Shown in pieces: positions 41,321 through 51,118 of a DNA stretch of 64,000 bases (position 1 is its first letter; every line of letters starts with the position of its first letter). Source of the stretch: Candidatus Bathyarchaeota archaeon (GTDB taxonomy: Archaea; Thermoproteota; Bathyarchaeia; Bathyarchaeales; Bathycorpusculaceae); the NCBI GenBank assembly GCA_963806535.1, contig CAWDYC010000008.1, positions 32,001-96,000 of the forward strand, in the 5' to 3' direction. The translations under genes and the position numbers were made by a program. The notes below the pieces were generated by a model. That model made no database searches. It was not told where the DNA came from and saw nothing but the letters and a program-made list of their open reading frames with translations.

Positions 41321-41462
41321 GTAGCGCCTAGACCTTATTGGACCTTTCCAGACCTTTTTAGACCTTGCCGAACCTTTTAAAACCGCAACCTGCAAAAGAT
41401 TTAAGTTTTATTTCAAAAAAACAGCTCAAAACACAAAAAAAAATTGCACAAAATACCGTCAA
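41321..41462 (-). repeat. solo copy of the core + 10-bp-periodic-tract repeat
   Basis: GACCTT at 41331, 41341, 41351, 41361 and AACCTT at 41371; 41388-41433 is the reverse complement of 49662-49707 at 43/46. Confidence 0.85.
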
Positions 41463-48053: not shown

Positions 48054-49082
48054 CTATTTTTTGAATGATTCGAAGTCTTTGCTGTAGTAAACGTGGGTTT
48101 CGCAGATTATGGCTGACACGTATTTTAACGGTGTTATGTCGAAGGCGGGGTTCATAACGTTGACTCCGTCTGGAGCAATCTGCACTGAGCCGATGTGTGT
48201 GACTTCTTCCGGTTTGCGCTCTTCAATAATTACGTCTGCGGCTTTGTGTGCGAGGTCGAAGGTGGATTTTGGTGCTGCAACATAGAACGGTATGCCATGT
48301 TCATGCGCAAGGACTGCCACTGAGTAAGTGCCGATCTTGTTAACCACCCCATCTTGAACTATGCGGTCAGAGCCAACAATAACTTTGTCAACAAGCCCTT
48401 TGCTCATAACGTAGCCCGCCATATTGTCCGTAATAAGCGTAACAGGAATGCCATCGCGTTTAAGCTCGTAAGTCGTAAGCCTAGCACCCTGCAAAAGCGG
48501 ACGGGTTTCGTCAGCGATAACTTTAATTTTTTTGCCTTGCTCGCAAGCCGCTCGAACCACACCCAATGCTGTGCCGTATTCCACAGTCGCAAGTTCGCCT
48601 GCGTTACAGTGAGTCAAAATTGTATCGCCGTCATCTATGAGAACTGAACCGTTTTTGCCGATTGCCCGGTTCTGAGCTGCATCTTCATCGGCTATCTTCT
48701 GAGCTTCCTCAACGATGGCTGTTTTAAGCCCTTCCATATTTCCTGAGTAGGCTTGGGCTTTGTTTAGGACTCGGTCTACTCCCCAAAACAGGTTCACAGC
48801 TGTGGGTCGTTGACGTTTGATAATTGAGCCGGCAGCTTCCAATTCTGATAGCAGTTTCTTTTTGGTTTTTGCTTTTGAATGGTAAGCTGCTAATGCAACG
48901 CCAAAGCCAGCAGCTGCACCCAGCAGAGGAGCACCCCTGACGCGGAGGGTTTTAATGGCTTCAGCCATCTGCTTAACCGTTTTAATTTCCAAAGTCACTT
49001 CTTGGAGAGGAAGTTTGGTTTGATCCGGTGTTATTACTGTGCCGTTTTGCCACTTAATCATCCGCATTTTGATGTTCCCCAA
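48054..49082 (-). CDS. mtnA: S-methyl-5-thioribose-1-phosphate isomerase
   Basis: VRGAP, RPTAVNL, THCNAG.LAT..YGTA, ETRPLLQGARLT, NKIGT. Confidence 0.92.
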   Translation of the reverse strand: MGNIKMRMIKWQNGTVITPDQTKLPLQEVTLEIKTVKQMAEAIKTLRVRGAPLLGAAAGFGVALAAYHSKAKTKKKLLSELEAAGSIIKRQRPTAVNLFWGVDRVLNKAQAYSGNMEGLKTAIVEEAQKIADEDAAQNRAIGKNGSVLIDDGDTILTHCNAGELATVEYGTALGVVRAACEQGKKIKVIADETRPLLQGARLTTYELKRDGIPVTLITDNMAGYVMSKGLVDKVIVGSDRIVQDGVVNKIGTYSVAVLAHEHGIPFYVAAPKSTFDLAHKAADVIIEERKPEEVTHIGSVQIAPDGVNVMNPAFDITPLKYVSAIICETHVYYSKDFESFKK

Positions 49083-49185
49083 CGTTGTTATTATGCTTAG
49101 TCAATTATGGTTCTGTTTAATATTTCGGCAGTTTTAAGAAAAAACTTCATGTTCGACATAATCATGTTTTTCTTCATTTTTGTAA

Positions 49186-49750
49186 TTTGTGTTTTGGATT
49201 GCTTTTTTGCTTTGGGTATTGATTCGTTTGCAGGTTGCGTCTTTAAATGTGAGAAAATGTGAGGATCTGTAAAAATCTGTAAAAAAATGTGAGAAAAAGG
49301 AAGAAAAAGGAAGAGATAGGCCGGTCTATTGCTTCCTGGAAGTTGTGACGGTTTTTTGGCAGTGTTTTTTCTTTGTGTTTTGAGCTTCTTTTTTGTTTCA
49401 AAGCTTGATTTCTCTGCAGGCTGCGTCTTTATCCCTCTCTACCCGCCTCCCTCCGTCTGTGTCCGTCTCCTTGTGTCCCAAAGGGCTATTGACAGATTTT
49501 TTGGCAGGGATTTTTCTTTGCGTTTTAGATTGCTTTTTTGTTTTGGGGCTTAGTTTGGTTGCAGGTTGATACATTTTTTGACAATATTTGACATTTAGAA
49601 GTTTAGGTCTAGCTAGAAAGAGAAGTTTTAGAAAATGTTTTCAACGTAAAAAACATCAGTTTGTTTTGAGTTGTTTTTTTGAAATAAAACTTAAATCTTC
49701 TACAGGTCGTGTCTAGATTCGTCCCAAAAAGTCCCAAAATGCTTAGAATT
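49186..49750 (+). repeat. tandem array of 4 units, each a conserved T-rich core ending CAGG(T/C) plus a variable 10-bp-periodic tract
   Basis: CAGG anchors at 49231, 49417, 49562 and 49703; tracts read in 10-bp register. Confidence 0.85.
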
Positions 49751-49781
49751 AAAGATAAAAATGTCAATCAAAATTTTGGTG

Positions 49782-51118
49782 TCAATTACCTCTGAAAAAA
49801 TCTGTGATTTTCTTTTGGAAAAGAGCTTTCTTCAACAATTCACTCTGCCTTATCCACCGGTGAATTGGAATCTCAAACCTGCCAGCAATGAACTGCAAAG
49901 ATTCAGCCAAGCTTTTGAAAAGATAAGGTTTTTGACGCATAGCATTCCTAACATTTTCACGTACCTGCCAAACGCCAATTGGCATGATGTAACCGGGTCT
50001 TGCCTCCCTTAGCACAATAACAGTGGCTTGGCGCCGTTCCCGAACCAATTGTTCGCAAGTAGCCAACCGCGCCGAATAGTAGCAGCCGCCAATCAGAGCA
50101 TATGTAGTTCGTCCACTGTTACCTTCCCAATCAGAAAAGATTGCGATGTTTTTTCCAGTCGGATTCCAAGTTGTGCCTGGAAACCAGGCTTCCATAGATT
50201 CGTAACTCCATTGCTGCGGAATCATTAAAATCTCAAAAACATTATCCATATAGACGGATTCGTAAACCCTGAATTCGTTGATTTCAGGAAAAGTCTTCAC
50301 TTGTTCTCTTAGGTTTTTGGATATGATGTCATCAACAGCAGTAATGCTCCAGCGAGTAGGAACAAGCTTCCTGTTTTTTTCAATACCAAAAGCGCCAACG
50401 CTGAAGGCTTTCTGAATTTTTGAAACCACAACGCCTCGATTAAAAAGTTCCAAAACTGCCTGCGTCGCCTTCAAATCAGTATCGTAATATGCTTTCTCAA
50501 TTTTATCATCGTACCTTGAATTGCCGACATGCAAGTCTCGAATTGGCGCTGAAGGACCAAATGGTTGAATATCATCGTCAAGAAAAATTGAGCCTCTTGG
50601 TTTTTTGGTGAGGTTCAATTCAATGTCTACACTGCTGTCGGCGAGGGCTAATTCACGTGTTTGATCTAAGATTTTGCCGCATCCGTGAATTTTTGCACGT
50701 TAACTCTATGTTTGCCACGTACAAGCAAACTACGGAAACCTACAATTTCATCCATGGATTTTCCAAACCAATGCTCGGGTAAATCGTAAATGCTTGTATC
50801 CTCATGAACCGGGGGCACGAGTGGTCCAGCGTAAACATTTGGGTATCCGATTCTTCCGATAAAAACGCTTGGCGGAGACATACCAGCAATATCCTCACCC
50901 ATTAATGGCACGCTTTTGAGGAAATAGTTGACTTTTAGCATTATTGAACAACGAGTTTTTCCGCAGAGAAAACGTGCACCTTTACATAAGACACATAAGC
51001 TGTCTTGTCGGCTTCGAGTAACAATTTGGTTTTCGTCAAAGCCGCTGTGACTTTTTAAGATGTCTTTTAACCAATTGTCTGAGCCGCGAATGTTTGAAAG
51101 TGAAGTTGTGGAAGTCAT
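49782..51118 (-). CDS. nre: Nre family DNA repair protein, frameshifted
   Basis: C..CKG...LCG...C, SPPSVFIGR.GYP, LVPTRWSITAVD, GGCYY, GVWQVRE, C-terminal PIP box QKKITDFF. Confidence 0.9.

Follow-up and report, generated by a model that had tools for sequence, protein, structure and literature searches.

A T-rich core followed by a ten-base-pair-periodic tract as a probable promoter–operator module of Bathyarchaeia genes for small AbrB-like proteins

Repeat units that consist of a conserved T-rich core and a variable tract with a 10-bp period are probably copies of the 5′ control region that precedes a family of Bathyarchaeia genes for AbrB-like proteins of ~92 amino acids. Our best reading, which we hold with about the same confidence, is that each unit joins a promoter to a helically phased direct-repeat operator, by which the gene would regulate itself much as MraZ does. 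This reading builds on what was observed directly: the repeat family, its periodicity, its linkage to one gene family, the predicted fold of the encoded protein, and the match between tract words and protein clades. No description of such a core–tract system was found in the literature searched.

Results

The array between mtnA and nre

The window (the whole stretch of 64,000 nt that was analyzed) holds four units in the intergenic region at 49083–49781, between an IF-2B/MtnA-type gene and nre (Table 1). The initial annotation had placed CAGG anchors at 49231, 49417, 49562, and 49703; these coordinates are exact, and the decamers that it read after each core are right in both sequence and period. 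Each core ends in an anchor, which is TGCAGGTT or a near variant. A repeat search of the array returned identities of 65–90% over 20–72 nt, including a 72-nt repeat in three copies (65–75% identity), the 20-nt center of which occurs in four copies spaced by 186, 145, and 141. Units 3 and 4, with three clear decamers each, are weak if taken alone, and the core of unit 4 is the most diverged of the four. The ordered decamer series of the unit 1 tract was found again at more than eight other loci.

The array marks a rearrangement point or synteny breakpoint, because mtnA and nre are non-adjacent in relatives. In the closest relative, a single unit occupies the corresponding place upstream of mtnA, but its tract is of the CGTCAC class rather than the unit 1 type; the mtnA loci of 11 other relatives were without a core (0/11). 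The nre gene is present as two ORFs, and its split (49782–51118, minus strand) may reflect a frameshift, a pseudogene, or a misassembly.

Table 1. Coordinates of the units, flanking genes, and related features. Positions are those of the window unless a contig of the source genome is named.
Feature	Location	Strand	Remarks
Fifth unit in the window, tract	41327–41386	−	6 decamers, word GGTC(C/T)
Fifth core in the window, single unit	41384–41442	−	nhmmer E = 3e-09
IF-2B/MtnA-type gene	48054–49082	−	One flank of the array
Unit 1 core	49176–49243	+	T-rich, ends TGCAGGTT at 49229–49236; nhmmer E = 4.9e-11
Unit 1 tract	49237–49316	+	8 decamers, G(T/G)(A/G)AG-type words
Upstream motif before core 2	49343–49358	+	TTGTGACGG and T run; optional
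Unit 2 core	49359–49429	+	Anchor TGCAGGCT at 49415–49422; nhmmer E = 9.5e-13
Unit 2 tract	49423–49482	+	6 pyrimidine-rich decamers, CGTCT/CCCTC type
Upstream motif before core 3	49487–49502	+	TATTGACAG and T run
Unit 3 core	49504–49573	+	Anchor TGCAGGTT at 49560–49567; nhmmer E = 7.5e-10
Unit 3 tract	49568–49597	+	3 decamers, word TTGACA
Unit 4 core	49657–49716	+	Anchor TACAGGTC at 49701–49708; nhmmer E = 8.8e-07
Unit 4 tract	49709–49738	+	3 decamers, word GTCCC
nre	49782–50618	−	Other flank of the array; ORF with Nre_N positions 119–270 and Nre_C
nre, further ORF	50666–51118	−	Nre_N positions 1–96
Broken PhS018-like gene copy	contig 4: 419739–420002		
Broken PhS018-like gene copy	contig 4: 297071–297359		
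Broken PhS018-like gene copy	contig 10: 75913–76181		
Three-unit composite copy	contig 4: 413324–414080		
Three-unit composite copy	contig 5: 365172–365935		
Three-unit composite copy	contig 11: 6381–7099		

The core family in the source genome

The source genome (2.95 Mb in 12 contigs, G+C ~0.40, 91.75% complete) was searched with an nhmmer profile, as the initial annotation had suggested. Seeded with the four units of the window, the profile converged over three rounds (106, 111, and 112 matches) on a family of 112 copies. The core is ~75 nt long and T-rich, and 72 of the 112 copies have a run of at least five T in positions 21–45 of the model. The units form 79 arrays of one to four units, namely 57 singles, 12 pairs, 9 triplets, and a sole quadruplet, which is the array in the window. 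Many copies have a TATA-like box, AAAGCTTAAAT, ~12 nt before the tract; its conservation is the lowest within the core in this genome (digits 4–7 of 9), and it is missing from many of the units that lack a gene (orphans). RNAalifold gave an open chain on both strands for 102 cores, with no consensus RNA fold, so a structured-RNA reading was dropped; this fits an element that acts at the DNA level. No family of Rfam 15 came near its threshold (three matches of 13–19 bits against gathering scores of 41–48). An assembly artefact is an unlikely source of the repeats, since the same architecture recurs at more than 100 loci here and in many independent assemblies.

Several further features of the family were noted. 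At 33 of the 112 cores, a TTATTGACGG-type motif with a subsequent T run lies 13–21 nt upstream, where 0.02 per window would be expected, and it could be a terminator or an additional binding site. The first 76 kb of contig 10 form a hot spot: 23 of the 112 units lie there, those up to 45.8 kb exclusively on the minus strand and those from 50.9 kb onward exclusively on the plus strand. Its genes are mixed (XPB-type and DEAD helicases, PIN, ClpB, glycosyltransferases, sugar enzymes, and arginine biosynthesis). A mobile-gene island was considered for this region and rejected, because a Pfam scan of 57 of the 84 ORFs called there found no integrase or transposase. A composite of three units, spaced by ~190 and then 501 nt, recurs three times in the genome. 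The contig 4 copy, the only one inspected, has, between its second and third units, a 63-aa zinc-ribbon ORF on the opposite strand. Linkage of the composite to tRNA genes was rejected, as ARAGORN found no tRNA in the two loci tested.

Periodicity and words of the tracts

In the 60 nt after the core, mean self-identity peaked at lags 10, 20, and 30 (0.578, 0.536, and 0.522, respectively) and stayed at 0.26–0.36 for other lags; the lag-10 peak anticipated in the initial annotation is thus present across the family. Relative to 5000 random genome windows, 96 of the 112 tracts were at or above the 99th percentile and 81 at or above the 99.9th, and 90 scored above every one of the 200 shuffles of their own sequence. 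The best lag was 10, 20, or 30 in 97 tracts. In the control, the 60 nt upstream of the cores, 10 of 112 segments reached the 99th percentile. The register of the tract is fixed relative to the core end, as had been claimed for the four units, and starts from the TGCAGGTT junction. The first decamer is embedded in the end of the core, and the word of the class is already present there. At least three decamers beyond the first were counted in 75 of 111 units (one unit at a contig end was left out), compared with 51 of 20,000 random windows.

The decamers share an anchoring base. Of 426 decamers, 95% have G at position 3, followed by a word of 4–5 nt that is specific to the class of copy. Within tracts, the majority fraction was 0.97, 0.86, 0.91, and 0.80 at positions 3–6, respectively, versus 0.69–0.79 elsewhere. 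The recurring word classes are GTCAC, GTCAA, G(T/G)(A/G)AG, GCAAG, GACA, GTCCC, and GGTC, along with GACT, GTGTG, GTA(T/C), GCA(A/C)A, CGTTG, and GTGAA. Runs of at least five T occur inside some tracts. The tracts differ from a normal VNTR, as the initial annotation had stated: variation is concentrated outside positions 3–6, and TRF alone scored only pieces of two of the four tracts in the window (those of units 1 and 4). The impression that neighboring decamers resemble each other was also borne out, although the effect is slight, with identity declining from 0.667 at distance 1 to 0.59 at distance 5–6. Near-identical tracts differ in length by 10-bp steps. These two observations fit growth and shrinkage of the tracts by slippage.

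The linked gene family and its predicted fold

Nine arrays in this genome are followed, 60–110 nt after the core, by an ORF of ~92 aa that belongs to one family. Of the nine ORFs, six are intact, and stops or frameshifts disrupt the other three (Table 1); each broken copy still lies behind an intact core and tract. The initial annotation had advised looking for a co-occurring protein family, and this family, with its predicted DNA-binding fold, is the only real one downstream of the units. A second gene family behind the orphans was rejected, as the other ORF clusters were translations of the next core or segmental duplicates.

A large protein collection contained 67 relatives, a few of which carry automatic names such as PrlF-type antitoxin or MraZ. 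The family reaches no curated cut-off of Pfam or NCBIfam. The AbrB domain model TIGR01439 gave sub-threshold matches in 17 of 34 members (best E = 0.0047), and the first member scored 15.1 bits, below the cut-off of 28.3 bits. An AlphaFold model built from a 34-row alignment (pLDDT 90.6, pTM 0.81) has the swapped-hairpin β-barrel fold, with looped-hinge helices, of the AbrB/SpoVT superfamily. Its best and only strong match in the PDB by Foldseek was PhS018 (PDB ID: 2GLW; TM 0.71, probability 1.00, and E = 2.8e-4 over 93 columns, spanning the full length). A profile search of PDB sequences also ranked 2GLW first (E = 0.09), and the aligned identity to PhS018 is 18%. The duplicated strand–strand–helix–strand pattern of the model indicates two AbrB-like halves in one chain, and the alignment contains two half motifs like G-R-I-x-I-P-K. 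A two-copy complex prediction scored 0.00, which counts neither way. The family is thus predicted to consist of single-chain AbrB-like (PhS018-like) swapped-hairpin proteins, and the modeled fold suggests that they bind DNA.

Linkage across genomes

A scan of species-representative genomes found 68 loci encoding the family, in some cases several per genome, and nearly all of them are in Bathyarchaeia/Bathyarchaeota assemblies. A core match ends at most 260 nt upstream of the start codon in 56 of the 68 loci. Lag-10 identity of at least 0.6 in a 50-nt window of the upstream 150 nt was found in 46 of 66 loci and in none of 125 control segments drawn from the same loci. In the loci that gave no core match by nhmmer, a short periodic tract is still present, preceded at ~12 nt by a box resembling AAAG(C)TTAAAT. 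The complete order is core, tract, a short stretch with a GGAGG/GGTG-like element, and gene.

No conserved partner gene was found among the 68 loci, where the largest cluster of downstream ORFs had four members. In 35 loci the next ORF lies on the opposite strand, in 15 it is on the same strand within 400 nt, and in 18 there is none. A toxin–antitoxin reading was rejected, because a same-strand ORF within 400 nt occurs in only 15 of 68 loci and these ORFs form no common family.

Among 301 genomes drawn from the phylum, seven have the gene, including the source genome, and all seven belong to its order. Among 60 genomes of the genus, the gene was found in 36 and the core in 22 by blastn. The gene is present in 21 of the 22 genomes with the core and in 15 of the 38 without it (Fisher p = 2e-5, calculated on related and hence non-independent genomes and with blastn missing diverged cores). 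The number of core copies varies widely between species of the genus. A viral contig collection yielded only two loci. Four family loci lie on contigs binned as Chloroflexia, Acidoferrum, or Cytophagales; they are likely mis-binned archaeal contigs, since the core and tract are present there too.

Agreement between words and protein clades

Free calling of the periodic consensus upstream of 60 genes showed that each protein subfamily has its own word. After 14 rows with a periodicity score below 15 were dropped, a quick tree of the remaining 46 proteins placed GTCAA in 12 of 13 members of one clade. Three further clades have GGTTA (5/5), GTCTA (2/2), and the GTAT/GAAC type (6/6). The tree needs 18 label changes for 14 words, compared with 29 on average, and never fewer than 24, in 200 shuffles. 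Residues 10–20 of the protein are clade-specific. The match is what recognition of the word by the protein would predict; it is not proof of recognition, because the gene and its upstream region are inherited together.

Discussion

Proposed function of the module

Here, we propose a function for the module based on the repeat family, the linked genes, and the predicted fold. The core would be a common promoter region with a TATA-like box and the invariant TGCAGGTT junction, and its T runs may halt incoming transcription and shield the unit from upstream. A promoter in the core is plausible, because the core lies where the promoter of the downstream gene must be. The tract would be an operator of 3–10 direct repeats, one per helical turn, each composed of the anchoring G and a 4–5-nt word specific to the protein subfamily. 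Molecules of the encoded protein may bind cooperatively, side by side on one face of the DNA, and would then sit over or just downstream of the transcription start. We infer that in this way the protein represses or tunes its own promoter and the gene is regulated by its own product, as in MraZ. Slippage would change the length of the tract in 10-bp steps, and the module would have multiplied to 112 copies in 79 arrays in this genome, of which ~102 copies lost the gene or never had one.

Several findings speak against the proposal. The TATA-like box is the most weakly conserved portion of the core and is missing from many orphans, and the orientation of orphans is random relative to their neighbors. 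T runs of at least five within some tracts would stop archaeal transcription inside the tract. In addition, several orphan word classes (GTCAC with 11 units, GCAAG with 6, and GACAA with 4, as well as GACT and GCA(A/C)A) have no intact partner gene here, as judged in a 92%-complete genome.

Of the interpretations offered in the initial annotation, that of helically phased protein-binding sites is retained in the form of operators of the gene family's own promoter. The centromere- or origin-like part of that suggestion is given up in view of the 79 arrays per genome and the absence of any partition or replication-initiator family from the 57 hot-spot ORFs scanned with Pfam. Promotion from the core, which had been linked to small RNAs, remains plausible from its position before the gene, whereas a small-RNA role of the tract is left as a minority rival.

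Fate of the units without a gene

No linked gene was detected at E < 0.01 for ~102 of the 112 units, including all four of the array in the window. With only gene-less copies in the window, the link to a protein-coding family could not have been read from it. Short decayed 5′ ends of the gene follow many of these tracts. The orientation of orphans relative to their neighbors is random (27 opposite/opposite, 21 same/same, and 15 for each of the other two combinations), and a role as promoters of the flanking genes was rejected on this ground. The word structure is similar in the two groups: G is found at position 3 with a frequency of 0.95 in orphans versus 0.92 in gene-linked units, and word/spacer conservation is 0.89/0.74 versus 0.86/0.75.

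It is quite possible, at somewhat short of an even chance, that the four units of the window and most other orphans are non-functional relics, that is, cassettes that were duplicated, lost their genes, and are now drifting. The decayed gene ends and the three gene copies with stops or frameshifts argue for it, as do the many word classes that lack an intact partner gene and the random orientation. The patchy presence between species, with no core at the mtnA loci of the 11 other relatives, points the same way, and so do the shortness of units 3 and 4 and the divergence of the unit 4 core. On the other hand, the word structure is as well kept in orphans as in gene-linked units, and the core and tract are still recognizable in ~102 units whose coding part is gone, unlike what unbiased decay would leave. 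A young age of the copies could explain both of these points.

Alternatively, the orphans may be functional, with each PhS018-like paralog recognizing every array that carries its word, which we consider unlikely. The code would be a simple one, consisting of the anchoring G and about four bases read once per helical turn. The ~100 gene-less units would then be addressable landing pads or decoys that titrate the regulators, fire short transcripts, or insulate neighboring genes, and recombination between the common cores may shuffle tracts among loci. Such a system would amount to a natural library of at least 15 orthogonal repressor–operator pairs on one scaffold.

Other explanations of the repeats

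An action at the RNA level is quite unlikely. The core would drive short transcripts or 5′ leaders in which the words are bound by protein or pair with targets, and the orphans would be small-RNA genes. The location of the tract between the likely promoter and the start codon, where it is probably transcribed as a leader in gene-linked units, is compatible with this, as are the Shine–Dalgarno-like GGAGG/GGTG element after it and the T runs before the next core, which could end the transcripts. However, a 10-nt period is the helical repeat of DNA, and T runs of at least five in some tracts would end transcription early. Neither a conserved RNA structure nor an Rfam match was found, and the AbrB-like fold is known as a binder of double-stranded DNA.

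It is very unlikely that the core and tract are a mobile or recombination element of the non-autonomous kind, spreading on its own and taking the gene along in some cases. This would account for the strongly variable copy number among species of one genus, the 23 copies in 76 kb of one contig, and the position of the window array at a synteny breakpoint. The different tract class behind the mtnA core of the closest relative also suggests exchange between copies. However, the copies inspected had no terminal inverted repeats or target-site duplications, and the repeat search found only weak inverted pairs in the window array. The 57 hot-spot ORFs scanned with Pfam included no transposase or integrase, just two loci came from the viral contig collection, and the arrays are explained by duplication, both tandem and segmental.

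Centromere-, origin-, or chromatin-phasing sites unrelated to gene control are highly improbable. Plasmid partition sites use phased short repeats bound by small proteins (ParR/parC), which provides a precedent, and the orientation of the units on contig 10 switches strand near 48 kb. Against this, there are 79 arrays per genome, no partition ATPase or Orc1/Cdc6 was detected in the 57 ORFs scanned with Pfam in the densest region, and in 56 of 68 loci the module immediately precedes the start codon of a single gene family. A ruler-like mechanism of the kind that the initial annotation suggested, with an enzyme appending 10-nt units beside the core, would suit the strict period, the register fixed to the core end, and the slightly greater likeness of neighbors, but it is scarcely credible. 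One and the same succession of dissimilar decamers is found in paralogous tracts, and conservation is concentrated in the word positions rather than the spacers. There is no co-occurring polymerase or reverse transcriptase, the one linked gene being that of the small 92-aa barrel protein with its predicted DNA-binding fold, and ordinary slippage suffices for changes in the number of 10-bp units.

Implications

The promoter–operator reading offers a candidate DNA target and role for the fold of PhS018, which is still termed a putative uncharacterized protein in PMC4333400. It also suggests that archaea may use, on a smaller protein, the one-box-per-helical-turn logic of MraZ, and that this logic has diversified there: the words differ between subfamilies, and the scaffold, spacing, and promoter core are constant. 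If the proteins do bind their words, the protein–word pairs would allow the recognition code of AbrB-like barrels to be read and would supply orthogonal repressor–operator parts. A large part of the intergenic repeats that had been unexplained in these uncultured archaea is accounted for by the module, which also flags copies located at rearrangement points.

Comparison with known systems

CRISPR arrays resemble the units in that conserved repeats alternate with variable segments. The initial annotation had set the array apart from CRISPR, and the repeats and spacers agree with this: the core–tract repeats are 75 nt long, 65–90% alike, and arranged in only 1–4 units per array, and each "spacer" has a 10-bp period of its own and belongs to one of several recurring classes.

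The operators of ribbon–helix–helix proteins (omega heptads, MetJ boxes, and ParR/parC) are short head-to-tail words that small proteins bind cooperatively. Their periods are 7, 8, or 10–11 bp, and some of them serve plasmid partition rather than self-regulation. Both the protein fold and the periods differ from those of the present family.

Regulators of the AbrB/MazE/SpoVT type belong to the same fold superfamily. They are half-barrel homodimers and are mostly encoded in two-gene toxin–antitoxin operons, whereas the predicted protein here is a single-chain barrel with no conserved partner gene downstream. PhS018 of Pyrococcus horikoshii, the structure of which was reportedly solved in 2006, is also a protein of 92 aa with a single-chain barrel of the swapped-hairpin type. 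Its relationship to the family is distant, with just 18% identity and a profile E of 0.09. In the available text of PMC4333400, a paper on MazE, proteins of the AbrB/MazE/SpoVT type are said to repress their own promoters. The same text groups PhS018 with the AbrB-like DNA binders, predicts that it recognizes DNA like AbrB-type proteins, terms it a putative uncharacterized protein, and names no DNA target for it (PMC4333400).

The closest parallel in design appears to be MraZ, from which the family is also set apart in several respects. MraZ has ~150 aa, compared with ~92 aa here. By sequence, the family has no membership in MraZ: among matches listed up to E = 1, Pfam MraZ (PF02381) matched 3 of 34 members (best E = 0.0037) and NCBIfam MraZ (TIGR00242) matched 2 of 34 (best E = 0.012), so that the E-values are marginal. 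[quoted passage not shown] The hosts are archaea with many paralogs per genome, each with its own word, and the units have up to 10 boxes, a conserved 75-nt core, and ~100 gene-less copies. [quoted passage not shown] Set against that description, the present module appears alike in its G-first direct-repeat boxes, their 10-bp spacing, their position at a likely start site, and the gene downstream that would be their own. The single-chain pair of AbrB-like halves is likewise shared, here on the basis of the predicted model. Self-regulation of the MraZ kind is proposed on the strength of this combination, in which a G-anchored word with a 10-bp period at a likely start site precedes its own gene and the encoded protein matches a single-chain barrel.
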